From assembly GCF_021730395.1 (NCBI RefSeq), contig NC_069369.1:15411210-15475209 (forward strand): a stretch of DNA of 64,000 nt, read 5' to 3'. Below are positions 9,134-57,668 of this stretch, in pieces. The notes under the pieces were generated by a model. That model was not told the DNA's origin. It searched no databases and was given only the letters and a program-made list of their open reading frames with translations. The translations under genes and the position numbers were made by a program. Position 1 is the stretch's first letter, and each line of letters opens with the position of its first letter. Origin of the DNA: Mercenaria mercenaria (taxonomy: Eukaryota).

Positions 9134-10870
9134 AACAAGAGGGTCATGATGACCCTGGATCGCTCACCAGAGTAATATGAGCTACATTTTTCAAATGTCA
9201 AACTGATGATTTTTAGAAATTTTTTGTAAGATTTTCCGATGTACAATCAAGTAACCCCTGGGGCAGAGCCAATTTTACCCCGGGGGTCATCATCATCAGA
9301 TTTGAACAAAGTTTGTAGAAGTGTACTAGGCAATGTTACATATCAAATATCTAAGACCTAGGCCTTCTGGTTTATTTTTAGCAAATTTATGAAGATTTCC
9401 CAATGTACAATCAAGTAACCCCTGGGGCTGGGTCAATTTGACCCTGGGAGTCAAGATTTTAACAACTTTTGTAGAGGTCCAGTAGGCAATGCAACATGTC
9501 AAATATCTAAGCTCTAGGCCTTCTGGTTTATTTTTAGAAAATTTTGAAGATTTTTCTATGTACAATCAAGTAACCCCATGGGGCGGGGTCAATTTTGACC
9601 CCGGGGGTCATGATTTGAACAAATTTTGTAGAAGTCCACTAGGCAATGCCACATGTCAAATATCTAAGATCTAGGCCTTCTGGTTTATTTTTAGAAAAAT
9701 TTTGAAGATTTTCCTATGTAAAATCAAGTGACCCCTGGGGCGGGGTCAATTTTGACCCTGGGGGTCATGATTTGAACAAATTTTGTAGAGGTCCACTAGG
9801 CAATGCTACATGTGAAATATCTAAGCTCTAGGCCTTCTGGTTTATTTTTAGAAAAATTTTGAAGATTTTCCTATGTAAAATAAAGTGACCTCTGAGGCGG
9901 GGTGAATTTTGACCCCGGGGGGTCATGATTTGAACAAATTTTGTAGAGGTCCACTAGGCAATGCTACATGTGAAATATCTAAGCTCTAGGCCTTCTGGTT
10001 TATTTTTAGAAAATTTTGAAGATTTTTCTATGTACAATCAAGTAACCCCATGGGGCGGGGTCAATTTGACCCCGGGGGTCATGATTTGAATAAATTTTGT
10101 AGAAGTCCAGTAGGCAATGCTACATGTGAAATATCTAAGCTCTAGGCCTTCTGGTTTATTTTTAGAAAATTTTTGAAGATTTTCCTATGTAAAATCAAGT
10201 GACCCCTGGGGCGGGGTCAATTTTGACCCCGGGGGTCATGATTTGAACAAATTTTGTAGAGGTCCACTAGGCAATGCTACATGTAAAATATCTAAGCTCT
10301 AGGCCTTCTGGTTTATTTTAAGAAAAATTTTGAAGATTTTCCTATGTAAAATCAAGTGACCCCTGGGGCGGGGTCAATTTTGACCCCATGGTCATGATTT
10401 GAACAACTTTAGTAGAGGTCCACTAGGCAATGCTACATGTCAAATATCTTAGCTCTAGGGCTTCTGGTTTTTGAGAAGAAGATTTTTTAAGATTTTCCTA
10501 TGTAAAATCAAGTGACCCCTGGGGCGGGGTCAATTTTGATCCCGGGTTCATGATTTGAACAAACTTGGTAGAGGTCCACTAGGCAATGCCTCACACCAAA
10601 TATCTAAGCTCTAGGGCTTCTGGTTTTTGAGAAGAAGATTTTTAAAGTTTTTCCTTTCAGTTGCCATGGCAACCAGAATTCTGCATGGAATTCAATTCTT
10701 TGAATAACTTTGTAGAGCTTCACCCAAGGAACATTCCTGTGAAGTTTGGATGAAATTGTCCAAGCGGTTTATGAGGAGATGTCATTAAAAGTAAAAGTTT
10801 ACGGACGGACGCCAGACGGTGACTGATCCTAATAGCTCACCCTAAGCCTTTGGCTCTGGTGAGCTAAAAA
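9134..10870 (+). mobile_element. Non-autonomous tandem-repeat carrier element, Helentron/HINE-like
   Basis: 5' motif aacaagagggtcatgatgaccc. About 9 tandem units of about 158 bp (…ggggcggggtcaattttgaccccgggggtcatga…) run from about 9,290 to 10,650. A unique tail contains acggacggacgcc, followed by the 3' hairpin tagctcacc…ggtgagcta. Confidence 0.6.
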
Positions 10871-11458
10871 GAGGTAAATGAACAATATGAGCAATAATTA
10901 ACAGAATGAAGAAGTCAAAAGATAGAAAGAAGAATTCAATACCAAAATGAATACTGAATGAAGATGTCATCAGTAAACTGAAAATGATGAAGGACAAAAG
11001 GAAGATATTCCTAAGTTTAACAGACAGGCCAGTGAAAAGAATAAATTAAGAGGCTCCTGCACAGAACAGAGATCTTAACAAAATGAAGATGCTAAAGGTA
11101 AGAACAGTTTGTTTGTTCGTTTGTTTTGGGTTTAACGCCGTTTTTCAGCAGTATTTGTCATGTAACGGCGGGCAGTTAACCTAACCAGTGTTCCTAGATT
11201 CTGTACCAGTACAAACCTGTTCTCCGCATGTAACTGCCAACTTCCCGACATGAATTATCTGAGGAAAGGAAAGAACAGAACACAAATGAATAGACAAAAT
11301 GGCTAATGAGCAGAATGACCAGATAAATAAATAGACCAAATGACCAAAGATATTAAAAAGGTCTTTGAACTACCAAGAAGGGTCAGTTTTTGAAACATGA
11401 CAACCAGACTATGGAGAAAGAATTTGCGGAAACAATACAGTGAAGTGACAATACATAC

Positions 11459-11506
11459 CTTTAGTGGCTTTCTTGGCTTCAGCAGCCTCTGCAGCAGCTT
11501 TTGCTT
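11459..11506 (-). CDS. Small exon (EAKAAAEAAEAKKATK)
   Basis: Acceptor caacag and donor AAAG|gtatgt. The exon is 48 nt. Its phase links the exon at 14831 to the exon at 8830, and its Ala/Lys-rich content matches the flanking exons. Confidence 0.4.
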
Positions 11507-12050
11507 CTGTTGATGATACAACATTACACAATATAGTCACACATCATACAACATAATTACTAAACATGTGTAACATATTAACATTTAAAAATAAAAAATT
11601 AATTCTTGGACTTTATTCTTCAACATTCAAAGTCAAACATTAAACCTAGAACATCAAACATTTCCACCATTTATCTATATTTTTGCTTGCACATCGTTAG
11701 ACAGAATGGAAATTCTTAAAGTCTGGTAAGGGATTAAAAGTTTGTTTAAAAAAGTTGCTGATGACTTGACCAGAACTACACATTTTACATAAATCATTAC
11801 GTTTTATTAAATGTAATATGATGGACAAGTGTAATTATACACCAGGTCATAGGACTGAAAAGGATTCTTTATATCATTCTTTTTTTATATCTTGAGAACA
11901 TGCATTCTTTTGGAAAGTACTATCCATTTGATTTTTTATACCTTTCCTTTAAATTCAAAAAAAGAATATTTTACCAGTATTAACAAATTATAGCTATATC
12001 TAAATAAGAAGTTTCTTGTTTCAACTAAAAAAAACCCAAAGAAAGTATTT

Positions 12051-12495
12051 AACAAGAGCTGTCCGTAAGACAGCATGCTTGACTTTTCTCAGTGCTTGAC
12101 TCTGAATTAGAGCTTTGCCTGTAAAAGGGTCATAAATCTGTCAAAATTCTAATTAGAGTTATGGGGATTGTTTCTTATGGTGTAGCCTTTGATAGAAAAT
12201 AACTATTTTAAGTTTCAAGTCAATAGCTTTGATAGTAACAGAGATATTGGATGTTATATAAAACTTTAACCAAACAATTCTAAGTTAAAAAGGGGCATAA
12301 CTCTGTCAAAATTCAATCAGAGTTATAGGGATTGTTTCTCCTGGTGTAGACTTTGATAGTAAATAAATATTTTAAGTTTCAAATCAAAAGCTTTGATAGT
12401 AACAGAGATATTTGACTTTATCGAAAACTTTAACCACGACGCCGACACTGGGGCAAATGCAATAGCTCTACATTTTCTTGAAAAGTCGAGCAAAA
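12051..12495 (+). mobile_element. Tandem-repeat carrier element, same family as above
   Basis: 5' aacaagagctgtc, two units of about 190 bp, a (gacgcc)-type microsatellite, and the 3' hairpin tagctctac…gtcgagc. Confidence 0.55.
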
Positions 12496-13429
12496 AAGGA
12501 AAAAAGAATGGCACAAAAATTAAGGCCCTGTTTATCAACAGAAAAACTTACTGGACTCAGATAATCATTTTTTATTCCTTTTGATATAAAAAAATCAAAA
12601 TAAATATGGAACAATGTGGACACAATGAATATTTATGTGAATCTGCACGAATAAAATGTGCATTAAATATATACATGAATGCAAAAAGCAAGCTTGTTTG
12701 AACCAACACCTCTATAAACAATTGGACATTTATGATAACAAAGGAGTATATAATGGAGGGACAAACAGCATAGACATGGGTAAAACCAATCCCCTCATAC
12801 AGAGTTGTCTTTTCATTCTGCCCAAGCTTACATGCATTTAGATAGATCCCTTTCTGGTTTATATTACATTAAGCACCTGATTCTGTGATATCATTCTTGC
12901 CAGTATGTGCATAAGGGGAGGAGGGGGGGGGGGGGGTAAGTTTCATAGACTTTGGTCAAGTCAAATCAGAAAATTAGACCCCAATAAGCAAGTTAAAATC
13001 CCTAATTTTATATCCTCAAAACTAACTGCTTTAACTGATATTAAGTGATTTCACAGTACAGTTCTCTGATTTGCTCATCCATTGGTAACTGGTCATAACA
13101 AGGCAACCTGACCATAATAAAGCAGTAGAAATATTTCCAACCAAATGTATATTTTACACAACCTTGTATGTTTGTTTAATATTTTACTCGCTAATTATTA
13201 TGTATATGGCTTGTTCATGGATATATATCAAGGACTCAGTGTGCTTTACATTCTAATTCATTAAAGCTTGATACCTTTAGTATCAAGTTTTTTTGCTTGC
13301 ATTTTGTTTTCTTGAATACTACTTCTGGCTTTTTTCTTCATAAAAACCAAAGATCATCCAGAGGAATGTCATACTAGATAAGGATTGTGCAGCTCATCAT
13401 GGAGGTTTTGAATACTGTAAAATCATTTA

Positions 13430-13625
13430 ATTTTGTGGGCATGAAATTTCGCGGTTTTGGTCAAAACGGCAATTTCGTGGGGACATGAATTTGTGGATTT
13501 CAACTTTCAAACATTAAATGAATGCGAATTTTACTTGTTCGTTGGGGTTAAATTTTGTGGATTAAATAAACCACGAAATCCACGAAAATTAGTCCCCCAC
13601 GAATATTAATGATTTCACAGTATAG
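13430..13625. repeat. Short dispersed inverted-repeat element (ttcgtggggac … gtcccccacgaa); a related fragment lies at about 42,150-42,240
   Basis: It has internal inverted repeats (aaatttcgcggttttggtcaaaacggcaatttcgtgg…ccacgaaatccacgaaaattagtccccc) and is followed by tgatttcacagta, which also occurs at 13,040 and 42,420. Confidence 0.35.
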
Positions 13626-14830
13626 TTTTATGTTCTGTAGCTGTCCTTGCAACATATTTGTACCTCCTTGAATGAAAGCTAAGGGCAACAACTCTGTATG
13701 AAAGATTGCAGTAAGACAGATACAATAATAATAGGAATCAAAATATCTTTTAAAGCTTCACCTGTTAACTTAAAATCTGTCCTATAAATTCAACCCAAAA
13801 CAAAGGTAATAAATGTAGCCAAAAATCACAGTTTTTACTATCTTTTCTTTCTGTTTTCCCTTAATTGCTAGTCAGACTTTCAAAAATTCTTATAGTATAA
13901 CAGAGAATTTGTACTTAAGCATTTCCATAATATGCAATTTATAAAACAGATTCATGTAGTTTATAAAACAGATTATTCGTATATTTCAAGGTCATACTTC
14001 ATGCATCCCTAGACCAAGGTGTTCTTTTTTCATTTGTAACTCAGCATTACAATACATCCAAATATGATGATATAACATTGGTGTAATTTACTCATGTAAT
14101 TATTTTATTAAGACACTATGAAATTTCATTTCACCCTTTCACTTCAGTTTAGATAAAAGTCTATTTTTTCACGGAAAATCATATAACACTAGCAGTGGTA
14201 AGGAAAAATGTTCTTTTTGTAGTTTAGCTTTCAAAGCAGTGTTTGTCATACAAGTTTGTATGTAAAGGATATGCTGGGTTACAAAACTGTTCCTTTTCCT
14301 CCGATACTGCTGTAAATCTTACCTATAATTGCAGCTGAAAATTGTACTCAACAAAATAAATACCTTATACATACATCTATCAACAAAAACTTTACAACAC
14401 TTTCACAGAAAGCACATTTAAAAACTAAATACACTTGCAAAATCTGTAGTTTTTACAATTAGCCTTTTTACATAGCAAATGTATAGATTGTCAATGGTTA
14501 ATTTAACATAAGCCACAATTTGTGCAACTATTTGCTCTATCTGTTCTTTGAACATAAAATTATTGGCGCATCAGCCTGCAGAAAACAAGAAAACTGAAAT
14601 CTAATCTTTAAGACTTTAAATATTCACCCATCGGTAATTCAGAATAGCAAATATCCAACACTTGATTTTTCAGAATTGCAAATATTCATTTTTTGATCAT
14701 TCAGAATTGCAAATAGTCACCACTTGATTATTAAAAAATTGCCTCTAAATCATACAGAATTGCAAAATATACGTCAAACAAAATACATTTAAGTTTTTTC
14801 TTTTTAAAAGAAAAATCACTTGACAATTAC

Positions 14831-15019
14831 CTTCTTCTTTCCTAGCATCAATATCAGCCTGCATATTCTGCATCATGTCTATAGCCCACTCTACCTGGTC
14901 TGTGCAGTCCTCTAGTGGGAAATCCTTCACACATAGCCACTGGGCAAACTCTAACAACAGCTCTATCTTCAACCATTCATTGCTCTGACTCTGTATAGTT
15001 GAATAATTATGCATCTTCA
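14831..15019 (-). CDS. Exon (…HNYSTIQSQSNEWLKIELLLEFAQWLCVKDFPLEDCTDQVEWAIDMMQNMQADIDARKEE); the 5' boundary is uncertain (15014 or 15019)
   Basis: Donor GAAG|gtaatt. Candidate acceptors are tttaaag|TG or gtgaag|ATG. The sequence is open and protein-like in only one frame. Confidence 0.5.
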
Positions 15020-15508
15020 CTTTAAAGGAACTTGTGCCAAAATAAGTATTGACTAGTAACATTTCAGAATAAATCCCTAATAAATCTACATACAAGTGAT
15101 AAATATACTCATTTTCTTACGCTGAAAAGATTACATCTTAATTGGGTTCAGAAATGTCTGAGTAATATAAGCTACAGCTCAAAAAGAGTAAATGACCACT
15201 TCCACAATAGCAGGCAGTGGTCTATGAGTACAAAATATAGGACTGGTTCCACAATCATGTATCAGATGACTGGGGTCTATGAGCATAACATATAAAACTT
15301 GCTTCATGATCATGTACCAGTCACTGAAATGCAACCCTACCTTTGCAATTTTATGTTTAACACAATACCTAAATCTAGACTTATAGCTTGACTCTGAGTT
15401 GTGCATTAGTTTGTACTGCCTGTTGTTCAAAAAACTAGGAAACTATGCAACATTTTTGAGATAATTTAAGGATTAGGCTGTCTATCTTCAGCATTCAACT
15501 GTACTTAC

Positions 15509-15616
15509 ATTAAGTGCCTCAATAGCATTCTGGTAAGACAGTAGTTGTTCAGCAGTCTCCTTTGACATCAGTGCAACACGTCTCCACATATGTGCCACAT
15601 AGTCCTCACTCTCATC
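15509..15616 (-). CDS. Exon (DESEDYVAHMWRRVALMSKETAEQLLSYQNAIEALN)
   Basis: Acceptor ttttag and donor AAT|gtaagt. The exon is 108 nt in phase 0, and only one frame is open. Confidence 0.55.
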
Positions 15617-16829
15617 CTAAAACATATACAACTGAATAATAAATACACAAAGAATATACACAGGTAAATATTTTCCTTTCTTTTTAACAGATATTTTTTT
15701 TCTTTTCAATTGGCTGCGGCCATGTTAAAATTTAAGAATATTATATTGGATATTATAAATCAGAATCTTATAAATTGTTAATGTCAAGTAATATGGTAAA
15801 AGTGACCTATAAAACCAAGCCAGTCCACTTCAGACATAATATAATTTTTCAATAATTACACATATTAAATAACATTATGTATTATTGCAACATTTACTAA
15901 GCATTTTTCTGAAATAAAGATTTTTAAAAGTTGTTCTTCTACCTGTCAGTTTATCAACTGATTCACACAATCATTTCCAGATATATATAGTGAACTGTGA
16001 CTATTAATTTCTGGTATCTGTGAGAAATCTAGATTTGTGTCTCTGGTGCCCCAACTTACTGTCACTGCATGGTCATACCAGCAAGACTAAGTAAAATTTC
16101 ATATTACCTTATTAATGTGTGTATGTATTGGAGCGAGAGGAATTTGTAAGGATAGTACAAAACATTAGCAAAAACATAAATCAAAAGAAACTGAAAGAGT
16201 ACAAAAAAACTTTTTTCTAAAAACAAAGTTCCTATAATGTTTCATAACTCAAAGTCAGATACTTTTTGAGATACGCAAAACACAAATTTGGACAAATTGA
16301 CAATCAAATGGATGGATATGCAGTTAGATAGGCATACAGACAAAAGCAAATCTAAGTACCCCCCAAAAATGTTGGGGTACATAAAAAATATGTCTAAGTG
16401 AAACTGAATTATAAAATAAAGAAAAATGTAATGCACACTGACAGTAAAAAGAGTCCCTGTGTACAAAGTAAATGTGATGAAAATACAATCTTTTTTTTTA
16501 ACTCTCTTTTACTCATTTTTTTTTGCATACAAGTACAAACTTTAAAAACAACAGTCATCTGTTTCTTTTTTAACAAGAAAGTCTGAAGTATCAAACTTTA
16601 ACCATTTTTTTATTAAAGATAACTCTGTCTTAAAATTTCTTAAGCAGGTGCATAAAAATAAAAATATATTAATAAAACAGACTTTAAGCATTCATCCCAG
16701 AAAAAAGTAAGGAACATTTAAGCAAAATAGAGAATTATGAACCCAAATTCATACTTTTAAGCAAATGCAAGTTGGCTAAAATGATTCCAAATGAAATCCG
16801 TACCACTGCCAAAATATTCTAAATATAAA

Positions 16830-18185
16830 AACAAGATCGCTCACCTGACCTATTGACCTAAAGATCAGATCATCAAGATTAACATTCTGACCAAGTTTCA
16901 TTAAGATATGGTCATAAATGTGGCCTCTAGAGAGTTAACTAGCTTTTCCTTTGATTTGACCTAGTGACCTAGTTTTTGACCCCACATGACCCAGATTCGA
17001 ACTTTTATCCTCCTTAAGATCATAAAGATAAACATTCTGACCAAGTTTCATGAAGATACAATCATAAATGTGGACTCTAGATTATCAACAATTTTTACCT
17101 TTGATTTGACCTGGTGACCTAGTTTTTGACCCCAATTGACCCAGATTGGAACTTGACCTTTAGATCATTCAGATTAACATTCTGACCAAGTTTCATTAAG
17201 ATATGGTCATAAATGTGCCTCTAGAGAGTTAACTAGCTTTTCCTTTAATTTGACCTGGTGACCTAGTTTTGACCCCACATGACCCAAATTCAAACTTGAC
17301 CTAAAGATTATCAAGGTTAATATTCTGACCAAGATTCATGAAGATACAGTCATAAATGTGACCTCTAGAGTGTTAACAAGTTTTTCCTTTGATTTTTTGA
17401 CCTGGTGACCTAGTTTTTGTTCCCACATAATCCAGATTCGAACTTGACCTAGAGGTCATCAAGACAAACATTCTGATTAAGTTTCATAGAGATATTGCCA
17501 TAAATGTGGCCTCTAGAGTGTTAATAAGCTTTTCCTTTGATTTGACCTGGTGACCTAGTTTTTGATCCCATCCCGCCTGACCCAGAGTTGAACTTGGCCT
17601 ATAGATGATCAAGATTAACATTCTGACCAAGTTTCATTAAGATATGGCCATAAATGTGCCTCTAGGGTGTTAACTAGCTTTTCCTTTGATTTAACCTGGT
17701 GACCTGGTTTTTGAGGCTATAGGACCCAGATTCAAACTGGACCTAAAGATCATCAACATTTACATTCTGACCAAGTTTGATGAAGATACAGTCATAAATG
17801 TGGCCTCTAGAGTGTTAACAAGTTTTTCCTTTGATTTGACCTGGTGACCTAGTTTTTAACCCCAGATGACCCAATATCAAACTTGTCCAAGATTTTATTG
17901 AGGGTAACATTCTGACCATGTTTCATTAAGATTGGGCCAAAATTGTAACCTCTAGTGTGTCAATAAGCTTTTCCTTTGATTTGACCTGGTGACCTAGTTT
18001 TTGACCCCAGATGATCCAATATCAAGCTTGTCCAAGATTTTATTGAGGGTAACATTCTGACAAATTTCATTAAGATTGGGCCAAAATTGTGACCTCTAGA
18101 GTGTTAACAGTCAAATTGTTGACGACGGATGGATGAACGACTGACGACGACGGACACAGGGCGATCACAAAAGCTATAATTAAGG
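16830..18185 (+). mobile_element. Tandem-repeat carrier element
   Basis: 5' aacaagatcgctcacc, about 10 tandem units of about 120 bp (…aacattctgaccaagtttcattaagatatggtcataaatgtggcctctagag…), and a 3' (gacgacgg)-rich tail. Confidence 0.55.
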
Positions 18186-18958
18186 AATAAAATGAGACTG
18201 AAAAGACCTGCCAATCTATGACACTTCAACAGTGACAAAAAGAGAGACATTATGCAGCCTGAAACCAGCAAAGAAACTGAATTTAGAGACCAGTCTCACA
18301 GAAGTAGCATCTGACTGGCTATTTATAGAACACTTTTGAAACTGACAAATGGCAAGGCTGCATTCCGAGACTGGTCTCCAAATTCAATTTTATATTGTAA
18401 AACAAAGGTGATCAAAGAAACCTACCAAAATATTTTGTGACTAGATAAGTCAAATATATAAATATTTTACAACAAACACACCCTTATCATATACTTCAAA
18501 CATTCATATTCATCATAAAATATTATTATAACAGTTTTTGCTCCTTCCATAAAGTAGTGATTTCACCCTGTTAATCTACTGACCACTGTTAATCAACCTG
18601 TACAGTTCAATGGCTGTAGGTATAAGTTTTCTCAAATTTAAGATTAGATATACTGAGCCCAAAAAGTATAAAGGGTTAGCTCAGTAACTGACCAAAGAAT
18701 ATCATTGGTAGTCTTATGTCAAGCATTCTCCAGTTATTGATTGTAAACCAACTGTTGGCTCATGGATAGACCTTGACTGTTGACCTATACTGGCCGTACC
18801 ATCATTACGCCCTTTAACCTCAAAATTATCTTGGTTATCTACCAACTGGAGTAAACATCCTATGATGTCAGACTGAAGTGTGCCAATGCAAACCCTAGTT
18901 ATTGACTGGAAATGATTTAGAACCTCAAGATCACTGGAACCTTGTCATTTTATCTGTC

Positions 18959-20225
18959 AACAAGAGCTGTCGGATGACAGCGCGCTCGACTATTCGAAGA
19001 ATTGATTGAAGAATGGGGTCAAAATATTTCCATAGATTTTCAGACAAAAGAAAAATATGGATTAAACAAAAAATGTTCCTGTATTTTTGGATTTCGATTA
19101 GTCTTGCACTAAATGGCAATGTGCAAGACCATGATGGCAAATATGTTAAGTTATATGTTAGGCAAAATATGGACTTGTATGAAAAATCTAACTAAATTCC
19201 AAGTCCAAAAAGGGTCATAATTCAGTCAAAATAGCTGACAGAGTTATGTACACTTGCCTACAGATGGAAATCATGTTGATATACTAGTGTTAAAAGTTTC
19301 AAAGCCACAGTTCAAATAGTTTTGACAAAAAATTCAAGTCCAAAAAGGGCCATAATTCAGCCAAAATAGTTGTCAGAGTTATGTACTCTTGCCTACAAAT
19401 GGAAATCATAATGATAAACAAGTGTTCAAAGTTTAAAAGCCATATGTCAAATAGTCTTGACAAAACATGGACATATACGAAAACAGAACCAATTTCCAAG
19501 TTCAAAAAGGGCCATAATTCAGCCAAAAAAGATGACAGAGTTATGTACTCTTGCCTTTTGATACAGACTATAATACTGAACAAGATATAAAAGTTTCAAA
19601 GCCATAAGTCAAACATTTTACACAAAATATAAACTGGTACGAAAAACTTAACCAAGATTTCTAAGTCAGAAGGGGCCATAATTCAGCCAAAATGCTTGAT
19701 GGAGTTATGTACTCTTGCCTACAACTGGACATGGTGATGGTAAACAAGTGTTGAAAGTTTCAAAGCTTTATCTCTAAAGACTTTGTCAAAATGTGGACTG
19801 GTACGAAAAACTTAACCAAGATTTCTAAGTCAAAAAGGGGCAATAATTCAACCAAAATGCTTGATGGAGTTATGTACTCTTGCCTACAACTGGACATGGT
19901 GACGGTAAACAAGTGTTGAAAGTTTCAAAGCTTTATCTCAAAAGACTTTGTCAAAATATGAACTGGTACGAAAAACTTAACCAAGATTTCTAAGTCAAAA
20001 GGGGCCATAATTCAGTCAAAATGCTTGACAGAGGTATGTACTCTTGCCTATAACTGGACATGGTGATGGTAAACAAGTGTTGAAAGTTTCAAAGCTTTAT
20101 CTCAAAAGACTTTGTCAAAATGTGGACTGGTACGAAAAACTTAACCAGGGTGTGACGCCGACGCCGACACCGACGCCGTGGTGAGTAGGATAGCTCTACT
20201 TATTCTTTGATTAGTCGAGCTAAAA
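18959..20225 (+). mobile_element. Tandem-repeat carrier element
   Basis: 5' aacaagagctgtcggatgacag, about 6 units of about 160 bp (…aaagggtcataattcagtcaaaat…gttatgtac…), a (gacgcc)n microsatellite, and the hairpin tagctctac…gtcgagcta. Confidence 0.6.
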
Positions 20226-46910: not shown

Positions 46911-47018
46911 CTTTAAGTTGTAAAAGTCTTAAAAATCCCCAGACTGGACCAAACCTTGAAACATTAATATCAGCACTTAGAGATTTAGTTTGTAAAATAT
47001 TAAAAATCATGAGCAAAC

Positions 47019-47136
47019 CTTTTGTGCTGCTTTCACTGTCCAGGACAAGGTTAAATGCATCAGGAGCTAAAGCTTCACCAGCCTTCACTAACAATGATCT
47101 CTTCATTCTCATTGTGCCAGAGTTAGCTTTCCTTGC
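47019..47136 (-). CDS. Exon (ARKANSGTMRMKRSLLVKAGEALAPDAFNLVLDSESSTK)
   Basis: Acceptor tttcag and donor AAAG|gtttgc. The exon starts in phase 0 and ends with 1 nt that matches the 2-nt start of the exon at 40562. Confidence 0.5.
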
Positions 47137-47895
47137 CTGAAATACAACAAGAGTTATATTTCCTTGCTAGAATTAGCATTGTCCTGTCCTGGTGTCAGTA
47201 TTTTCAGTAAGCTTCCATTATCTCAGAAAAAGCCATTAGCCCTATAGCAAACACTGGAAGCATTACTTGCCCTAAAGAATATGTTGGTACAAAACAAAAC
47301 AGAGGTATGTGTTAAGTGTCTTAAATAGAACAAGAGACTATTCATTTCCTGAAAGACAAAGAGAGGTAATTTTCACTGAACAGTATGATTTCCGTGCCTG
47401 TGACAGAACCAGACACTTTCCAAATACACTAAAACCCTGATTGTATAAGGATGCAGGGGTGAGAGAAATGCTAGAGTTATCAAAGGTTTAAATATAAGTA
47501 AAATGGCCTTGCACTGCTCAAGCTGGCTGAGTGCTCGAGTTATTGAACATCAAGCGATCAATGTTAAACTGCACAGAAATTTATAAGTGTGTCTATATTC
47601 ATCTCATTTTCTACCAATTTGAGCTGACATCTGTAACAGATTCTGAAAAGGGGGGAAATCAGACATAAGAATGTTTCAGACATTCCTAAACATTTGTCTT
47701 TGTTTCTTCACCTTATATACTCATTAAAGGCATTATATCTTTCTCTATTATATAACGAAGGAACATAATGCAGAAGCAAACTTTCAGCCACTGCAATACT
47801 GCTACTGTAACATTATTTGCATAGTCAAAACAATCCTGATATCTGTTATTTAAAGTCCTTACTTGCTGTATAAATATTTTACTGTCTATCAATAC

Positions 47896-48027
47896 CTGCT
47901 CTATAATCATGCCAGCAATGTCTTCCACCCTCTCCGGCTGTTTGTAGAGTTCAGACCGAAGTTCAAGTCTGTGTAACATCACCTCAAGCCTCTCCTGATA
48001 GATCTTAGCATCATCTAGGGCAAGTGC
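47896..48027 (-). CDS. Exon (ALALDDAKIYQERLEVMLHRLELRSELYKQPERVEDIAGMIIEQ)
   Basis: Acceptor ...ttaacag and donor CAG|gtattg. The exon is 132 nt in phase 0. Confidence 0.55.
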
Positions 48028-49189
48028 CTGTTAAATACATTTATAAATGCTTGCTTTAGTACAGTCCAATGAATAAGAAAGCATGATGGACCTTATTTGA
48101 ATCTCTCTGTAGTGTAGCATCCTGCTGAAAAACAGCACTTGTTCAAACATTACAGAACACAGTTTGGCAACTAGTTTCAGAATGAAGCCTTCTCATTGGT
48201 CAATTTCAAATTTGTGCTCAGAAACAACCAATCAAATGCTCAAGTTTTGAAACTGGTGTCCAAACTTTGCTTTACGACCTTAGGCCCATGTGTATCACGA
48301 GATGTGATCACGTACAAAGCAAATTGGGAATCATCACCTCCAAACCCAGTGGTAAATACTGTATTCACTTTGTACATTTACAACCGGTGCTGGAGTTTAC
48401 TTATATTGCATGGTAAAGGGAAAATGTAACAATCCAGATGTAATGGATGAATATCCTTCTTCACATTGTTTCAGCCATGGGCAGGACCACCCACATTTGT
48501 ACAAATAATCTGGATTGCTCACTCACATGAACAGGGAACCTATTTGTTTCAGTGCAAAATAAAAACATCTTTCATGAAGTGAACACCAGACAATATTTGC
48601 ATGAGTGGCATAACCATGGACGAAGATGTAACATACGGTGTTCGTGAGTGACAGATATTTTGCTCTTATATGTAAAATTAAAATATTTCCTTTTTACTTC
48701 ATTTTTTAACTCACTTCATCCACTGAATAGTTTCATACCAATGAAAAATATATTTCACTTCAATACAGTAATAATGCACTGAAAATTAGGTGATTGGTGT
48801 GGCAACAAAGCTTCAGATCATAGTTACAAAATGTTTGCCAAAAATGTTTTGTTTCAATTTGATAAGAGACCCAATGCAATACAAAAACAGTTTGGTTTAC
48901 TTGTAGGAAGAAAAGTATGATTACAAACAGGGAAATGCATCAAGTAAAGGCCTTGCAAAAGAATTTAGATTTATATAACTAACCTCATGTGTACCCTTCT
49001 GATCTTACAGAAGTGGCTTTGGCAAAGACTTTCTGGTATCATACAAGTTAAATGAAGCATACTGATGGATTTTTTACTATTTGTTTGCTAAATATTTCTA
49101 TGCTATACATTTATTGAATGCCTTCAAATCTGTTTCTTATTTAATCTTTAAGTACTATATGAAGCAACTAATGTCTGTGGATGGCCAAC

Positions 49190-49286
49190 CTTTTTCAGAT
49201 TTGTCATGGCAACTTCTATCTGTTCCACATCTTCCTCACATTTAGCAAGTTCTGTATGTACCTGACATCTCAACTGTACCAGCAAA
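49190..49286 (-). CDS. Exon (LLVQLRCQVHTELAKCEEDVEQIEVAMTNLKK)
   Basis: Acceptor ttttag and donor AAG|gttggc. Confidence 0.5.
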
Positions 49287-49639
49287 CTAAAACATAAATA
49301 TTGTCAATTTCAGCAAACTTCTAAAGGGGTTTTGGAATTGTACATTGCCAGATTTACAAAATAAAGTGACCAGGAAATGTAATCTCCTATACCTGTGTGC
49401 AACAGTTCTGGCAACAAAACATTTATGCTATCTTTATCATAAATATTTCAATTTTTTTTCCCACTAATTTACACGTCAAGCATAAAATTTTAGCCAAAAT
49501 AAGATGGGTTTTTTAAACCTGTGAAATATATAAATACCATTTCCAATAATTTTGTTTCATTAAACACAAGATAAAACTTGATAAAAATTCTCAAGAAATA
49601 AAGGTGGCCAAGTGGTTTTCAGAACAACAGATTTTTATC

Positions 49640-50900
49640 AACAAGAGGGCCATGATGATCCTGTATCGCTTATCAGAGTTTCACAGATCAAACAGGTAAA
49701 ACAAGAAGCATTTCTGTCAAATAACATTGAAAACTGGCCAACAGATTCAGAGGAAGTTCCCATAGAGCCGTATTGGGAAAACTAGAACTACACCTGGCAG
49801 CCTTGTTTAATTCTGAATTCAAAATGTTTTAACAATTTCAGTTGGGGTTCAACCAAGGAACATGTTTGTGAAATAATTTCAAAAACAGGCCAGTTGTTCA
49901 GGAGGAGCTGTTACCTGAAGTTGTTTTTTTCCAACAGTATTTCACAAGAAGATTTTTGCAGTTATAACAATATACATATAGGGAAACTGGTGGGCACCTT
50001 TTTGACAAATCGTAATAATTTAAACAGTCTTGGTAGAGAATCACCAAAAATCATTCCTAAGAAAATATTCTGAAACTGGGCCAGCAGTTTCCACTTAATA
50101 CACAAAGAGAAAAGTAAGCATGCCCTCTTTTGACGAATCAAAATAAACTGAACAATCTTTTGAGAGGGTCACTTGAGTAACATTTCTGTAAAACAAAATT
50201 TTTGAATAATGTAAAAAAATTAATAAAGGATCACCATTGGAACATTTGTGTATGATTCTAAAATCAGGCCAGCATCTTCTGACAAGAAGATTTCTAAAGT
50301 TTCCAATATGGGAACTGCTCTTTGGGAGCAAATTTTTTAGATGAATAAGAAAAATTTAGAACATTCATGTTAGAGTCATCTAAGGCTTATTTGTGTGAAA
50401 TTATTTTAAATCAGGCCAGCAGTTTCCGAGAAGAATTTTGATTTTCACTGTTACATATATACAGGGAAAAGTGACCATGCCTTCTGACAGCCATGTTTTT
50501 TGACAAATCAGTATAATCTGAAAAACCTTGGTACAGTTTGACCAAAGGACTATTTTACTGAAACTGTTCTAAAATTAGGCAATCAGTTTCTGACATGGAT
50601 TCCAAAGTTTCTACTATGAATATAAAGGTAAAAGTGACCAAGCCCCCTGAAGGCTGTATTTTTGATGAATAGTAATAATTTGAACAATGTTGGAATATTG
50701 TCACCAAAGGAACATTTCTATGAAATAATTTTAAAATTGAAGCAGCATATTAGGGGTTGGGTCAGATGTTGTTTTAAAATGTTTCTTCTTTAGGTACTGG
50801 TGACCCTTATGCACAAATAAGAGGATCTATTTGAACAACTTTACAAGAACAAAGAATGGACAGACAGATCATGGACCACAATAGCTCTGGAAGCTAAATA
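49640..50900 (+). mobile_element. Tandem-repeat carrier element
   Basis: 5' aacaagagggccatgatgatcc, about 6 units of about 170 bp (…aaatcaggccagcagtttc…gggaaaagtgaccatgcc…) from about 49,700 to 50,850, then ggacagacagatc, then tagctctgg. Confidence 0.55.
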
Positions 50901-50992
50901 TGCAAAGTATATAATTATCATATGACTGAGATTCATAGCAATAATAACAGAATTACTCAGACACATTTATCTACCCACAGACTTTAACCCAC

Positions 50993-51183
50993 CTCTGTAT
51001 ATTTTCCAGGGCCTCAGCCACCAGTGTGAGGGGTTTGCGTACATGGTGTCTAAGGTTTGGTTGAAGCAGTGGCAAGCACAAGTTCCACTGGGTCACACAG
51101 CCGACCTGTATAACATTAGGGTTACCAAGACGTATGGCATTCATAATAACCTCCTCACATCTCTTTATAGCTTGCTGACGAAT
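50993..51183 (-). CDS. Exon (IRQQAIKRCEEVIMNAIRLGNPNVIQVGCVTQWNLCLPLLQPNLRHHVRKPLTLVAEALENIQ)
   Basis: Acceptor ...ttcag and donor AG|gtgggt. The exon is 191 nt. Confidence 0.55.
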
Positions 51184-51489
51184 CTGAAATATACATTGAC
51201 AATAAATTCATATTTCTTAAGTATTATCTTAAGACTTAATAATCTAATGACATAAAATACTCCAATTAGCTTAAACATATTTTTATTCCGAAATGCATGA
51301 AATATTTACAATACAACATTCCAGGATACTCCAATTGATATGAACATATGACATGTACTGGTATTAATATTAAAAAGCAAGAAAAGTGTGCAAAATAACA
51401 GTAATCATACTGACAATTTATCAAAATGAGGAAAAGTTAGATAAATGGTCTGCTACAACTGCTAAATACTGGTCTTCAATTTTTGATAA

Positions 51490-51965
51490 AATAGGTTACG
51501 ACTTAAAATACTGGAGTCTTCTATACTGGAGTCTTCTATCTTCAAATAGCTAGGTTATGAGTGTTAAATACTGAAATCTTCCATCTTCAATAAGATAGGT
51601 TATGACTTGAATACGGAAGTCTTCTATCTTCAAATAGCTAGGTTATGAGTGTTAAATACTGAAATCTTCCATCTTCAATAAGATAGGTTATGACTTGAAT
51701 ACAGAAGTCTTCTATCTTCAAATAGCTAGGTTATGAGTGTTAAATACTGAAATCTTCCATCTTCAATAAGATAGGTTATGACTTGAATACGGAAGTCTTC
51801 TATCTTCAAATAGCTAGGTTATGAGTGTTAACTACTGAAATCTTCCATCTTCAATAAGATAGGTTATGACTTGAATAAGTAAGTCTTTTATCTTCAAATA
51901 GCTAGGTTATGACTTAAACACAGAAGTCTTCTATCTTCAACTACCTAGGTTATGTCTTAAATAAA
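51490..51965. repeat. Tandem repeat with a unit of about 120 bp, made of two subunits of about 60 bp (…tcttctatcttcaaatagctaggttatgagtgttaaatactgaaatcttccatcttcaataagataggttatgacttgaa…), about 4 copies
   Basis: The tandem period is visible by eye. Confidence 0.7.
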
Positions 51966-52053
51966 TCAATCAAAACTGTATCAGCCCATGTCTTCAAGGA
52001 AAATTTTAAGAAAGACAAAAAAAGAAAAACAGCACATCTGTTCACAGTACTTA

Positions 52054-52153
52054 CATCAACAACATGTTTGTGTAGAGACTCTTGTTTCTCTGCTAGATGT
52101 TTTACCATGATATCACACTGTAGAAACTCAAGTTCCAGGTAGAATCCCTGATC
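52054..52153 (-). CDS. Exon (DQGFYLELEFLQCDIMVKHLAEKQESLHKHVVD)
   Basis: Acceptor ttggacag and donor GAT|gtaagt. The sequence matches part of minus-strand track ORF 51950..52171. Confidence 0.5.
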
Positions 52154-52627
52154 CTGTCCAATAAAAAACATGTTTCACAAACTGTACATAAAACTGCTTC
52201 AAGTTAAGTTTTATAAATACAACACTAATGTAAGAAAACTGTGCTTGTTTAGTGTGTTAGTTCTTAAGCCAAATTAACAACTGTCTTCTGGAGACTTTTC
52301 AAACTTAAAAACTATTTTTAAGAAACAGCGGGCAGCCTCGTAGAATCTCCAAACCTCCTGTAAACCATCTACAAATTTTCCACCCCTGAAGAGGTTTGAA
52401 CCCAGTGATGAAAGGCAAGTGATTCAAAATGAGAAAACTTACACACTCAGCCAATGATGTGTCTCACCAACAGTTTTGTAAGGTGTATTCTAATATTTTT
52501 CAGGGATAAACCAGTGGTTCTTTAAACCCTGTTGCATGTATTTACATGTGGTCTTCAAATCTTTGACACTACATTTTTTTTTACATACACAATATACAAC
52601 CGTAATATTACATCACAATAATCATAC

Positions 52628-52727
52628 CTTCACATTACATGTCTTCATGTGATCCGCACAATCCTGAGCAAGATCTGGAAAGTCCAGCTCCAAACATAAC
52701 CTCGCTAATTCTAACAACAGGTAAGGC
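52628..52727 (-). CDS. Exon (PYLLLELARLCLELDFPDLAQDCADHMKTCNVK)
   Basis: Acceptor aatttcag and donor AAG|gtatga. Confidence 0.5.
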
Positions 52728-54099
52728 CTGAAATTATGATAAAACTTTACAAACTCACCCCTATCACTAATTCAACGCTGTAATTACTCATTTCTATCTC
52801 TAAATGCTTTACAGTATCTTCATAGACAATTAATATTTGAAAGCATAAGGCCAAACATAAATTTCCTATGCAGAAATTCTATAACATATCACAACTGATT
52901 CTGAATTTCAATTAAATATAAAGATATCTTTATTCTTCAAAATGCAAGACACTAAATACAATGTAAAGAAAATAATTCAACATAAATAATAATCACATAG
53001 GACCTAAACTGAAATTAAGTGTGTTTGCCCTTTACCTTCCAACCCAAGACCTGAATCTGCCAGGTACTTTCACATTAAATGGAGACTTGTGATTCTTTTT
53101 AATTTAGAGGTGTACAGTATTATAGTGATCACACCATTTCCTATGATGAAGTAATGAATTACCACACTTAATTATATCTAAGAAATCAAAATATCAGAAT
53201 TGTCAAGTTGGTTTTAATGATAATTGCTTTCTTACTGTTGAACTGTGATGACTATAATACAGTTTGTCAAAATATGCATAACATTTGGAAAAAGGCAACT
53301 GCACATGCACTGGACCAAGGGGAAGGCTTGGAATTGTTAAGGAAAGGCATACATGTAGTTTGTCCTTGACCATTCTTTAACACAATTTATCTAAACTTAG
53401 TTGTTTTATAGCAAAACTGTCTCTTGTAAATGAAATAGGCAAATTATTGAGAATACACATTAATGGTGCAGACAGACAAGGCCATACAGCCTGACATCTG
53501 CTTTGTCTCGTTAAGAAAACACGGGAGCCCTTGTAGGCATTTTTGAGTACGCAATAGAGTAGAACCTCAAATATTTCTCAAACAAACTGTCTCTGTCTGT
53601 CTCTCTCTCTCTCTATATATATAGTCTTATATTAAATAAATCATGAAATGAAAAGAAATAAGAACATTTATTTATGCTAACTGAATAATTTGAGAGGGTA
53701 AAATAATTACCTACCTACATACCTACCAAATGTTAAAAAAGATAAGCAGGTAAAGGGTAAACACACTTATAATTTTAATTTCTACCTAACCAATAATATC
53801 TACTAATCTAAAACAATGCAGAAATTGCATGGTTTTGTGTGAAAGCATTGTCATATATAAATATATAAAGTGAAGACTACAATCCTTATCTACTGTAAGC
53901 TTAGTGACTTCTAAGCTATGACTATACAAACCTGACCAGTAATAATGTACATCACTCCACGTCTATAGGACACATAAATATAGTGAATATTTTGTTTATC
54001 AGGTAAGTTTTGTCAGACTTTAGAAAAAGATATTTTAAAAACAATCTGAACTGAACAGGTGTTGTCCTGATGCAAAGGATTCTGGAACAGTAAGGCATC

Positions 54100-54655
54100 T
54101 GCCAAGTCTCTGACCTATGTTTGACAGTAAGGCATCTGCCAAGTCTCTGACCTATGTTTGACAGTAAGGCATCTGCCAAGTCTCTGACAAGTCTCTGACC
54201 TATGTGTGACAGTAAGGCATCTGCCAACACTCTGACCTATGTTCGACAGTAAGGTATTTGCCAAGTCTCTGACCTATGTTTAACAGTAAGGCATCTGCCA
54301 AGTCTCTGACCTATGTTTAACAGTAAGCCATTTTCCAAGTCTCTTACTTATGTTCGACAGTAAGGCATCTACTAAGTCTCTGACCTATGTTAGACAGTAA
54401 GGCATCTGCCAAGTCTCTGACCTATGTTTAACAGTAAGGCATCTGCCAAGTCTCTGACATATGTTTAACAGTAAGGCATCTGCCAAGTCTCTGACATATG
54501 TTTGACAGTAAGGCATCTGCCAACTCTCTGACATATGTTTGACAGTATTAAAGGCATCTGCCAAGTCTATGACCTCTGTTTGACAGTAAGGTATCTGTCA
54601 ACTCTCTGACCTATGTTTGACAGAAAGGCATCTGCCAAGTCTCTGACCTATGTTT
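54100..54655. repeat. Minisatellite with a unit of about 42 bp (tgtttgacagtaaggcatctgccaagtctctgacctatg), about 13 copies
   Basis: The tandem period is visible by eye. The 92-aa minus-strand track ORF 53952..54230 is an artefact of it. Confidence 0.75.
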
Positions 54656-54705
54656 GAGGTGATATCTTCTTTACAGGAGAGTTTATTTCACTACTATTTA
54701 CTTAC

Positions 54706-54786
54706 TTTTCCTGACTCTCTGCAGAGATTTTCTTGGTTGATGTTGGTGTTGGTGTACGTCTGCCAGTACCTTTTGTTGGACTTTTC
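54706..54786 (-). CDS. Exon (KSPTKGTGRRTPTPTSTKKISAESQE), Ser/Thr/Pro/Lys-rich
   Basis: Acceptor ...ttactag and donor AA|gtaagt. The phase links exon 60779-60832 to exon 52628-52727. Confidence 0.45.
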
Positions 54787-56269
54787 CTAGTAAGCAGTTA
54801 TATAAGTTGTAAATAGTATTTATGGTGTTTGTGATTGAAAAATATAAATTCTTATATTATGTAGCTATTTCTAGTTGTGAGAACTACAGTGTGAAGTATA
54901 TATCCATGTCAAATACCATGTTCAAAGGCATATTGCATTTTAGTACAAAATTGCAAATAATGCTAATTGTATTTCAGTCAATTTTTTATTCTATTTAGCT
55001 GATAAAATTTGCTTTTGTTGAATGGTGTCATCTTTAAACAAGACTTACATGACTAGGGAGTTTGAACATGTATTCAACTGGGATTAAATGCTAAATTTGT
55101 ATTAACATTTTGTTTTGCTCAAAATTTCTTTACATACTTGCCAGATGTCCAGCCTTTATACTTTCTCGTTTTGCTTCAATTAAAATATATTAAATATCTA
55201 ATTATCAAACAAACTTTTAACACAGTTAACAAGCTATAGCCACATGAAAAATAGTTCTATAATAGTCTGACAAAACAGACTAGACAGTAGAAAGTGAAAA
55301 CAGCAAAAAATATTCCAACACCAGTTCAAAGATTTTATAACAAAGTTTTTAGAAAATATGAAGTGAGAAGAGACATGGTGGAAATAATACTGGTGTTACT
55401 CAATCAATAAATACTGACAATCTTGAGTCTAAACAGTTGTAATTTTCTAGGCCATTGAAACATATATTTACAATAATATGATAACAAACTAACTGTAGAT
55501 ATATAATTACAATCAGTGACAATAAGTGGTTTCTATGGAAACCTAAAAAAACTTATACATACAAGACCAGAGAGCTTTCAGGCTTTAACTGATGTAAAAA
55601 AAATACATTATAAAAATAATATATCATGGATTGCATTTATTTCTTTTTATATAGGTCTGATCAATTTGCATAATACTATAATATGAGTATGAAAAACAGT
55701 TTCAACAGAAAAGTTTCATGAAATATGATACTGCAATCTAGCATTTTAGAAAAAGCTAACAGAGACAATTTCAGAAAACATTTTTAAAGCAAATGTTATG
55801 GAAGAGGTAAAACAAACTGATCTGTGAAGTAACAGCTAGGACATCATTTGACTAGAGAGCTTACAGCAAGAGATAGTTGTAGCTACACCCTTGGTTTTTA
55901 TTACATACAAGAATAGGCTTTGCACATTGTGTCATTGTGGGGAATATTTGCACAAAATATTTCAAAATTTCTAGGTACATCTAGATTAAACATCCTTAAC
56001 GTTAATTTTCTGACTTGCGCTCTTTTTAAATGATCTTTAGAGACTGATAACATAACAAGTTAGCTTCATAATGACTCAGATTGGTGTATTTTCGATACAA
56101 TATCATTTTATTGTATTAAACATTTTAGAATATTCAACACATGAGGGAAAGCAGCAACCTTGGCCTTGAACAGACATTGATAAAAGTTTCATCCTAAATT
56201 TGTGTCTCTACAATGGAAAATATTGTTGCTAAATTAATTACAAGGGTGCCATAGTCACAAAATTCTCCA

Positions 56270-56668
56270 GTCGAGAGCTTGCTAAGTTGTCATTCTTGCA
56301 TCTGACCTTTGACCTCTTAGTCTGACCTTGACCTTCAACCTAGGGACCTGGTTCTTGCGCATGACACTCTGTCTCATGATGGTGAATAGTTGTGCCAAGT
56401 CACATCGAAATCCTTCCATTCACGAAGAACAAATACTCTGGACAAAGTCATTCTTGAATGTGACCTTTGACCTCTAAGTGTGACCTTAACCTTAGACATA
56501 GGGACCTGGTTCATGTGCATGACAGGGATGGTGAACATTTGTGCCAAGTTACATTTAAATCCCTTCATGCATGAAGAAGAAATGCTAGGAAAAAAGTTTG
56601 TTTGATGCTGCCCTCCCGCCTGCCCGCCAAGGGCATTTCCAGAATACCACTGTCTTTCGGACGGGCAC
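56270..56668 (+). mobile_element. Small tandem-repeat carrier element (gaccttgacc-type units)
   Basis: About 2 units, then ctgccctcccgcctgcccgcc, then a 3' end …cggacgggcacataaaaag whose terminus matches other copies. Confidence 0.45.
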
Positions 56669-56789
56669 ATAAAAAGTTTTTTCTGTGGGCAAAAAGACTA
56701 AGAGCAAATTTTGTGATTGACAGACAGAAAGCCAGTTAAGATAAGACTTTCCTACAGTCAGGAGAATGTTTTAGCTGTCAATAAACATG

Positions 56790-57668
56790 AAACTAGATGT
56801 GTCCATAGGACACAGGTGCCCCCACTCCTGCCACTGTAACAAGGTTTAATGACTCAGGTTAAACAATTTTTAAGATACAACATTCCTGTAGTTTTGTGAC
56901 TCTACATCAAATACTTTTGGAGCTATGCACGACAAAACATTAAAATGACAATATTTTCCTAGGTCAGGGGCCATAACTCCTACAATACTGAATGAATCCG
57001 GACACGAAACCCCAGGTGCACAACTGCACATGTGACCAACATTCCTGTAAACTTTGGTGACTCTAGGTTAAATACTTTCGGAGCTATGTGCGATACAACA
57101 TTAAAACGACCAATTTTTAACTAAGTCAGGGGCCATAACTCCTACACGACAGAACGAATCCGGACGCAAAACCCCAGGTGCACAACTGCACGTGCTGACC
57201 AACATTCCTGTAAACTTTGGTGACTCTAGGTCAAATACTTTTGGAGCTACACGCGATACAACATTGAAATGACCAATTTTAAACTAAGTCAGGGGCCATA
57301 ACTCCTACATGACTGAATGAATCGGATGCGAAACCCCAGGTGCACAACTACACATGCTGACCAACATTCCAGTAAAGTTTTGTGACTCTAGGTCAAATAC
57401 TTTTGGAGCTACGAGCAACACAACACTAAAATGACCAATTTTTACAAAGTTAAGGGCCATAACTCCTACACAACTAAATGAATCTGGACGCGAAACCCCG
57501 GGTGCACAACTACACATGCTGACCAACATTCCTGTAAAGTTTTGTGACTCTATTTCAAATACTTTTGGAGCTAGGCCCGACACAACATTCTTGGAAGGAC
57601 GGACAGACGGACGGACACACAAGAGCAAATCTATATGCCCCCACCACTCATGGGGGGGCACAAAAAGA
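56790..57668 (+). mobile_element. Tandem-repeat carrier element
   Basis: About 4.5 units of about 178 bp (…gtcaggggccataactcctaca…gaatccggacgcgaaaccccaggtgcacaactgcac…), then ggacggacagacggacggac, then the hairpin tgcccccaccactcatgggggggca. Confidence 0.6.

Follow-up and report, generated by a model that had tools for sequence, protein, structure and literature searches.

HINEs within a CFAP46 homologue

The 64-kb stretch of eukaryotic DNA analysed here (contig NC_069369.1, hereafter the window) has ~34% G+C, is rich in tandem arrays and carries on its minus strand a homologue of the cilia gene CFAP46/TTC40, together with a series of repeat-carrying elements. Judged from their sequence anatomy, these carrier elements are HINEs, non-autonomous Helentron derivatives with satellite-like tandem repeats. 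We found 13 copies, 12 within 9134-57668 and one at ~62971-63835, and the polarity of all 13 was the same, with the HINE top strand on the coding strand of the gene. Nine copies were structurally secure and the other four (E3, E7, E12 and E13) were decayed. The copies, in which subTIR denotes a subterminal inverted repeat and IR an inverted repeat, are as follows.

E1, 9134..10870, minus strand: complete HINE with nine 157-bp repeats and (CCGT)n; the minus-strand read runs, in its 5' part, TTTTT-AGCTCACCAGAG (subTIR)-(13 nt)-GGTGAGCT (IR) ... CCGTCTGGCGTCCGTCCGT ... repeats, and in its 3' part CTCTGGTGAGC (3' subTIR)-GATCCA-GGGTCAT-C-ATGACCC (palindrome)-TCTTGTT
E2, 12051..12497, minus strand: short complete HINE with 1.9 164-bp repeats, palindrome GCTGTC..GACAGC and a GCTCGAC-type subTIR
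E3, ~16150..16390 (start approximate), minus strand: truncated copy of which only the canonical 5' part (hairpin end) remains, with T-run, GTACCCC..GGGGTAC hairpin, decayed microsatellite and a last monomer resembling that of E11
E4, 16825..18175, minus strand: HINE with 8.5 145-bp repeats, the microsatellite at the end opposite the canonical 3' end, where the palindrome is lost (AACAAGA|TCGCTCACC)
E5, 18959..20228, minus strand: complete HINE with 135/164-bp repeats, 12-nt GCTCGACTAATC subTIR and palindrome GCTGTC-ATCC-GACAGC
E6, 35369..36597, minus strand: complete HINE with 14-nt subTIR ATGTCTCCCACCAC
E7, ~38883..40245 (start approximate), minus strand: decayed HINE with eroded termini, degenerate ~150-bp units with GACCTTTGACC and (ACGG)3 at 40184
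E8, 41348..42030, minus strand: HINE with 3.9 145-bp repeats, GCCCCC-type subTIR plus hairpin and ACGG microsatellite at 41990
E9, 45377..45633, minus strand: short HINE with one monomer, exact AACAAGAGC terminus, GGACAGACGGTTGGACGGAC microsatellite and decayed hairpin end
E10, 49640..50897, minus strand: E1-type HINE, its head 87.5% identical to that of E1, with degenerate internal repeats and a deletion in the hairpin end
E12, 56240..56678, minus strand: decayed copy with two ~158-bp GACCTTTGACC units like those of E7, ending in GGGCACATAAAAAG
E11, 56791..57668, minus strand: complete HINE with 4.4 162-bp repeats, palindrome TGTGTCC-TAT-GGACACA, subTIR GTGCCCCC and ACGG microsatellite at 57607
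E13, ~62971..63835 (start uncertain), minus strand: probable copy outside 9134-57668 with 164-bp repeats, GACCTTGACC units, decayed microsatellite and hairpin CCCCATATAC..TATATAGGGG and, after it, an A-rich tail

Published descriptions of HINE anatomy (PMC7492417, PMC4067079) begin at the 5' end with a flanking T and a 5' subTIR, close to which lies an IR complementary to it. A short microsatellite (GTCY/GTCC in oysters) and the central satellite-like repeats come next, and the 3' side consists of a subTIR, a palindrome and the terminus, again with a flanking T. Such elements are described as having neither target duplication nor coding capacity and as preferring T-rich or TT targets. Read on the minus strand, the window copies matched this Cg_HINE/DINE-1 anatomy point by point, their top strand giving a T-run, a subTIR/IR hairpin, (GTCY)n, 135-165 bp repeats, a subTIR, a palindrome and CTCTTGTT. 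Allowing at most one mismatch, the subTIRs measured 13 nt in E1 and E2, 12 nt in E5, 14 nt in E6, 10 nt in E11 and 9 nt in E8, with short matches only in the decayed E3, E7, E12 and E13, and the 3' copy lay 25-30 nt from the terminus (25-26 nt in E1, E2, E5, E6 and E11). Hairpins of 5' IR and subTIR were read as AGCTCACC..GGTGAGCT in E1, GTACCCC..GGGGTAC in E3, TGCCCCC..GGGGGCA in E11 and GTCTCCCAC..GTGGGAGAC in E6. The microsatellite appeared as ACGGACGG on the plus strand (equivalent to CCGTCCGT on the element top strand) at 10801, 40184, 41990 and 57607, and in degenerate form in E4, E5, E9 and E10. Tandem-repeat periods were 157, 164, 145, 135/164, 145 and 162 bp, and the GACCTTTGACC units always had the same polarity relative to the termini. 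Palindromes with 6-8 bp stems directly preceded CTCTTGTT/CTCTAGTT in E1, E2, E5, E6 and E11, a feature also present in ~20 metagenome copies described below. With junctions read from the copies alone, intact copies started with a run of 5-6 T and ended in TT, and flanking direct repeats were not seen.

The open reading frames (ORFs) of the copies, inspected without a search against protein families, were only repeat-derived, crossing the arrays on either strand, and none could be recognised as a protein; neither the window nor the loci fetched contained an autonomous Helentron copy. Two other assignments were rejected. The 5'-TC...CTRR-3' termini of canonical (Helitron1-type) Helitrons were absent, and because the termini consist of T-run/subTIR and CTCTTGTT, with subTIRs present, the copies are of Helentron rather than Helitron type. 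A miniature inverted-repeat transposable element was discarded because the inverted repeats are subterminal and the ends asymmetric, and no target site duplications were seen. The elements are thus new members of a bivalve class that has already been described (Cg_HINE, DINE-1, pearl and DTC84 kin).

The host gene was identified through a pseudo-protein assembled from minus-strand ORFs, which matched CFAP46/TTC40 proteins (best match Gigantopelta aegis, E = 1e-98). The first protein search returned no bivalve protein and only hits of ≤816 aa, so that the full-length proteins seem to be missing. When 51 CFAP46 homologues were compared with the window by tblastn, every match fell on the minus strand, and the ORFs of Logan contig L001 (run SRR23372228) were colinear on that strand from 52153 down to 6366, so that the minus-strand placement of the gene in the original prediction was confirmed. 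L001, which was obtained via one Logan ORF matched by C-terminal exons and was used for exon mapping, behaves as a spliced, near full-length CFAP46 transcript of a related species. Mapped exons include those listed here.

CFAP46 host gene, mapped over 6366..54791, minus strand (tblastn and L001)
CFAP46 upstream exons, minus strand: 54687-54791, 52628-52732
CFAP46 exons, minus strand: 52034-52153, 50995-51204, 49187-49282, 47893-48030, 47020-47166, 40429-40551, 37575-37808, ~36949-37014
CFAP46 exons, minus strand: 35185-35322, 34393-34602, 33790-34029, 30501-30620, 29762-29944, 29279-29407, 28700-28879, 27534-27722
CFAP46 exons, minus strand: 26040-26123, 15506-15622, 14826-14987, 7836-8012, 7237-7527, 7051-7125, 6366-6596

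Every element had been predicted to be intronic, and this held for ten copies (E1 to E10), which are situated between mapped exons, but not for 56240-56678 and 56791-57668 or for the extra copy at ~62971-63835, upstream of which no exon was mapped. The mapped exon lying farthest upstream (54687-54791) matches about residue 350 of an Elysia homologue, and ~350 residues must therefore be encoded beyond it. No exon could be mapped at 54.8-64 kb, where only weak matches in inconsistent order were obtained and rejected; E11, E12 and E13 are presumably intronic. E6 fills ~75% of the ~1.6-kb intron from 36948 to 35323, and its pyrimidine-rich canonical 3' terminus lies 47 nt upstream of a functional acceptor, in or beside the branch-point/polypyrimidine region, with the exon not destroyed. 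The copies had been labelled antisense, a reading that took the AACAAGAG end as 5'. In HINE/DINE-1 anatomy this end is the 3' end, and since the HINE top strand is the window minus strand, which is the CFAP46 coding strand, the copies are sense. The Repbase Helitron-N_CGi consensus sequences likewise place position 1 at the microsatellite-bearing flank in the Cg_HINE work.

At the other end of the gene, L001 runs ~4 kb past the last mapped exon (6366-6596), and the remaining CFAP46 3' exons are therefore expected at 1-4900. This region has 24-26% G+C and 40-59% of its bases in homopolymer runs of ≥4, versus ~10% elsewhere in the window, and looks homopolymer-inflated, of low quality or misassembled.

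Uniform polarity of independent insertions

To search both strands alike for copies, we ran four symmetric scans (exact motif; motif with ≤2 mismatches plus palindrome; G+C hairpin then A-run; ACGGACGG (ACGG) microsatellite), none of which revealed a reversed copy across 5-64 kb. We counted 8 plus-strand occurrences of the exact AACAAGAG motif and one on the minus strand, where chance alone would give 3.4. Six of the plus-strand hits (9134, 12051, 18959, 41348, 45377 and 49640) start an element and are followed by a short palindrome or conserved block; farther downstream come tandem repeats of 135-165 bp, a microsatellite of ACGG type, a hairpin rich in G+C and an A-run. The hit at 47329 (plus) lacks any element features, and the octamers at 47146-47153 (plus) and 52079-52086 (minus) lie within CFAP46 coding exons and are unrelated to elements, a caution for censuses made by motif only. 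Variant termini were found as AACAAGA-T at 16825, AACTAGAG at 35369, AACTAGAT at 56791, TACAAGGG at 56240 and AAAAAGGG at 38883, and copies with variant or eroded termini were added by reading the remaining regions. A generic scan pairing a motif with any 10-nt inverted match within 5 kb proved too noisy.

The original claim that all carrier elements in 9134-57668 share one polarity thus stood up, as did its arithmetic that 11 of 11 has a chance of ~1 in 1,000 (2 x 2^-11 ~0.001). Its copy number of 11 did not, as 12 copies lie in that range and one more at ~62971-63835; E12 was apparently missed in that count. For the revised census, the two-sided P of uniform polarity was 0.00024 with 13 copies and 0.004 with the 9 secure copies, values that are optimistic for a window chosen post hoc.

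The copies fall into several subfamilies with unrelated repeats, and unique sequence and exons lie between them, indicating that they are independent insertions. Consistently, self-BLAST of the window left the copies unlinked, with conservation at the termini only, and blastn-short with heads and tails linked only subfamily pairs. Segmental duplication was rejected on the grounds of differing subfamilies and unique flanks. Nor do all repeats in the gene share one orientation, since copies of a second repeat family at 26183-26389 and 58955-59122 are opposite in orientation to that at 42255-42420. The non-random co-orientation of the elements with the host gene is real.

Independent copies were then sought in metagenome contigs. 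A repeat-derived ORF of the window matched >100 JGI metagenome ORFs, so that public metagenomes evidently contain related bivalve DNA. Scanning with the pattern AACAAGAGCTGTC-N3-6-GACAGC gave 38 loci, in ~21 of which the GCTCGACTATTC subTIR comes next, marking them as genuine HINEs, and contigs were searched on both strands alike with heads and tails of the window copies. Two co-oriented copies each were found in L009, L011, L012, L018, L030 and L036, five in L027 and four in L029; orientation was mixed in L016 and, from a separate contig set, in L042. Among contigs with at least two copies, 14 adjacent HINE pairs had the same and 2 the opposite orientation (one-sided P ~0.002). Five random contigs of JGI sample 3300049158 held few HINEs with this terminus type.

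Some of these contigs had features of their own. Positions 3019-3068 of L030 (Ga0182091_1222719) were 96% identical over 50 nt to the E5 head at 18959-19008, a likeness suggesting that JGI metagenome Ga0182091, the sample from which L012, L033 and L036 also come, contains DNA of the same species or of a sister species. L011 contains at 963-1003 a perfect palindrome with a 10-bp stem, in which the element terminus is read in either sense (CTCTTGTTAG...CTAACAAGAG); two termini may be joined here head to head. In L027 (1-3398) and L029 (4150-6853), several HINEs of related subfamilies succeed one another head to tail at distances of no more than a few hundred bases, suggesting tandem or nested insertion, or composite elements.

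Several other repeats share the window with the HINEs. The second family, interspersed and partly palindromic, occupies 26183-26389, 31082-31321, 42255-42420, 44265-44426 and 58955-59122; its translations contain the motifs DQPAHPRSL and RMRRLVWIHAGR, and its ORF matched >100 'hypothetical proteins' on JGI and ENA metagenome contigs. A foldback-type repeat is present in two copies 15.5 kb apart (30737-31054 and 46575-46916), with 137-nt arms of 95% complementarity spaced by 7 nt. Short-period tandem arrays at 22436-23130, 24559-25177, 51523-51963, 54087-54657 and 59651-60121 (periods 19, 42, 43/88, 37 and 43 bp) have no adjoining HINE termini. E13 is bracketed by a 135-nt direct repeat (61808-61942 and 63866-64000, 99% identical, 2058 nt apart), the second copy of which is cut off at the window end.

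Origin of the orientation bias

In short contigs the gene strand was unreadable, and Pfam searches on ORFs of the larger contigs gave nothing usable, only one sub-threshold P2RX7_C match; we therefore adopted GC skew plus TA skew as a proxy for gene strand. Calibration on CFAP46 introns, with elements, exons and arrays masked, showed positive sense-strand skew in 22/24 tiles of 1.5 kb and 12/12 tiles of 3 kb, with a mean of ~0.11. We then measured the flanks of contigs with at least 1 kb of flank, after masking HINE-like sequence and tandem repeats, and for 12 of 13 contigs the HINE top strand gave a positive value (pooled +0.060, z = 6.0), the elements' own composition being nearly neutral for this measure. 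In L042 the sign of the skew flips between the two opposite copies in the predicted direction, and in both mixed contigs, L016 and L042, flank skew changes to match. These results fit a HINE top strand that sits on the locally G+T-rich, coding-type strand.

We give an even chance to the explanation that a strand preference at the insertion step, tied to transcription or replication polarity, produced the co-orientation. Strand-preferential insertion of this kind had been among the original proposals, and it is favoured by the 14:2 neighbours and the 12/13 flank skews, though not proven. We infer that the bias originates at integration and that transcription rather than replication is the polarity cue. 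Under such a scheme, the HUH Rep nuclease of rolling-circle transposons, which cuts and joins single-stranded DNA and passes on one defined transposon strand, would need a transiently single-stranded target, and ligation of the top strand would be confined to that strand. A candidate target is the non-template strand that is displaced when a gene is transcribed; the lagging-strand template is an alternative, and would be the same strand when fork and polymerase are co-directional. All copies in one transcription unit would then point along the gene. Helraiser cleaves only single-stranded DNA, and in its model a single-stranded target is cleaved and passive replication follows; its integrations are commoner in highly transcribed genes. 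Support for the single-stranded-target model comes mainly from in vitro cleavage by Helraiser. The narrower proposal that Helentron/HINE integration is mechanically coupled to transcription, with the top strand entering only the displaced non-template strand of transcribed germline genes, is offered tentatively and has, in our judgement, distinctly less than an even chance, and the rule relating HINE orientation to gene strand is itself provisional.

Several points weigh against an insertion-step preference. The polarity of the decayed E3, E7, E12 and E13 (4/13) was read from partial features, and the choice of the window was post hoc. Some co-oriented contig neighbours abut (L012, L027 and L036) and may be composite or tandem rather than independent. 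Gene strand in the contigs was inferred only through a skew proxy that was calibrated on a single gene, CFAP46, and cannot tell transcription polarity from replication polarity. For Cg_HINEs, integration 'in both orientations' is described across the genome (PMC7492417), and a fly paper reports INE-1 copies lying both ways in Drosophila introns, neither being related there to gene strand. Finally, the excess of strong donor-like motifs on the non-transcribed strand, given below, leaves room for selection.

The idea that sense copies are purged through splicing or polyadenylation fails as worded, as the surviving copies are sense. Its mirror image, in which insertion would occur either way and copies with the bottom strand transcribed would be removed for harming pre-mRNA processing, by way of cryptic donors, premature polyadenylation or double-stranded RNA formed with sense copies in the same intron, appears unlikely to us. 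It is the classical account of the intronic LINE/LTR orientation bias; an antisense copy could conceivably pair with several sense copies in the pre-mRNA, and strong donor-like hexamers in the 13 elements number 10 on the non-transcribed but 3 on the transcribed strand. Yet strong motif support is missing, since poly(A) hexamers (15 on the transcribed vs 20 on the other strand) and acceptor-like sites (2 vs 2) are nearly balanced, and poly(A)/acceptor content was rejected as an obvious selective cause. A 13:0 outcome would also demand very efficient purging within introns that reach 10 kb in length; sense copies themselves bring the pyrimidine-rich CTCTTGTT and Ts into the pre-mRNA, with that of E6 tolerated 47 nt from a real acceptor; and the trend persists in contig flanks with only weak skew.

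A still lower probability attaches to target-sequence asymmetry alone, by which the top strand would simply follow oligo-T/TT, commoner on the sense strand of introns, without coupling to any machinery. HINEs are reported to favour T-rich/TT targets (PMC7492417, PMC4067079), the copies begin with a T-run and end in TT, the sense strand is enriched in T and G, and E6 lies in the pyrimidine-tract region of its intron. However, T-runs of at least 4-5 nt in masked intronic sequence are distributed only 1.2:1 between sense and antisense strands, and those of ≥7 nt are rarer on the sense strand. Such asymmetry predicts ~55% sense copies, or ~0.55^13 for 13 co-oriented ones, versus 13/13 in the window and 14:2 among neighbours, and most copies are far from acceptor sites; oligo-T availability was accordingly rejected as a sufficient cause. 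Equally improbable in our view is chance or a local peculiarity, whether a post hoc pick or regional duplication or composite elements, with no general rule behind it. The finding was indeed selected after the window had been read, some contig neighbours abut, and two contigs are mixed, but the copies differ in subfamily and repeats with exons between them, the independent contigs gave 14:2 neighbours and 12/13 flank-skew signs, and flank skew changed to match in both mixed contigs.

Implications and known systems

Literature searches found no analysis of HINE, DINE-1 or Helitron orientation against gene strand; the elements are known, and the orientation rule seems not to have been reported before. 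Little is known of how Helitron-like elements select and enter their targets in vivo, and a strong gene-strand polarity of thousands of natural HINE insertions would, if the rule is true, be genomic evidence of strand-specific integration and a parallel to the replication-linked bias of bacterial IS608. Some 2,900 RC insertions are reported from population data of oysters. If transcription coupling is true, HINE polarity would be a near-absolute heritable record of the germline transcribed strand or fork direction, and eukaryotic DNA transposons would have their first transcription-strand-specific integration rule. HINEs seed bivalve satellite DNA, so that a polarity rule would shape the spread of repeats through genes, and sense HINEs bring hairpins and repeats into pre-mRNAs. 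HINE polarity could also serve as an annotation-free indicator of transcription direction. Should the genome-wide ratio be ~1:1, the finding would shrink to an ordinary cluster of known elements.

Among known systems, Cg_HINE of Crassostrea gigas (Vojvoda Zeljko et al. 2020, PMC7492417) shares with the window copies a 5' subTIR plus IR, a GTCY-type microsatellite, ~150-180 bp satellite-DNA-like repeats that keep one orientation, a subTIR and palindrome on the 3' side, and several subfamilies with a common termini plan; it inserts in T-rich sites without target duplication, as the window copies also appear to do. E1's 157-bp monomer is a recognisable relative of the Cg170-type (mean column identity 63%; 157 vs 166 bp), although neither the termini nor the monomers of the window copies match exactly the oyster consensus sequences that could be read. 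MgE has been found in Mytilus HSP70 introns. Together with pearl of oysters and DTC84 of Donax trunculus, it belongs to what we take, from their descriptions, to be similar bivalve short repeat carriers with ACGG-type microsatellites. All three are treated as Cg_HINE relatives (PMC7492417). DINE-1/INE-1 of Drosophila and the mite and mosquito HINEs (Thomas et al. 2014, PMC4067079), which define the family, also have subTIRs, an IR/palindromic subTIR, a microsatellite, central repeats and a 3' stem-loop, insert at TT with variable terminal Ts, lack coding capacity and are abundant in introns. The DINE-1 paper on 12 genomes counted intronic copies without orientation. DINE-1/INE-1 differ in having no sequence similarity to the window copies and in lying both ways in fly introns, whereas polarity is uniform within CFAP46.

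Intronic long interspersed elements (LINEs) and long terminal repeat (LTR) elements of mammals and flies have an antisense bias of roughly 55-70%, attributed to selection against RNA-processing signals. Those are retroelements equipped with promoters and poly(A) signals of their own, whereas the window HINEs are non-coding DNA elements whose bias is sense and near-complete locally. A known parallel is IS608 (IS200/IS605), whose orientation is said to have been found by Ton-Hoang and colleagues in 2010 to be set by the single-stranded lagging-strand template, with a genome-wide bias. Single-strand transposition of the IS200/IS605 type is cited as a parallel in the Helraiser paper. IS608 is alike in using an HUH nuclease on single-stranded DNA and differs in being bacterial, in its Y1 transposase without helicase and in having replication as cue. 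The telomere-capping Helitrons of Paramecium show an absolute orientation bias, ascribed to one-strand insertion, and carry satellites between their termini, but in their case the bias is set by the C-rich telomeric strand as target rather than by gene polarity (PMC13085455).

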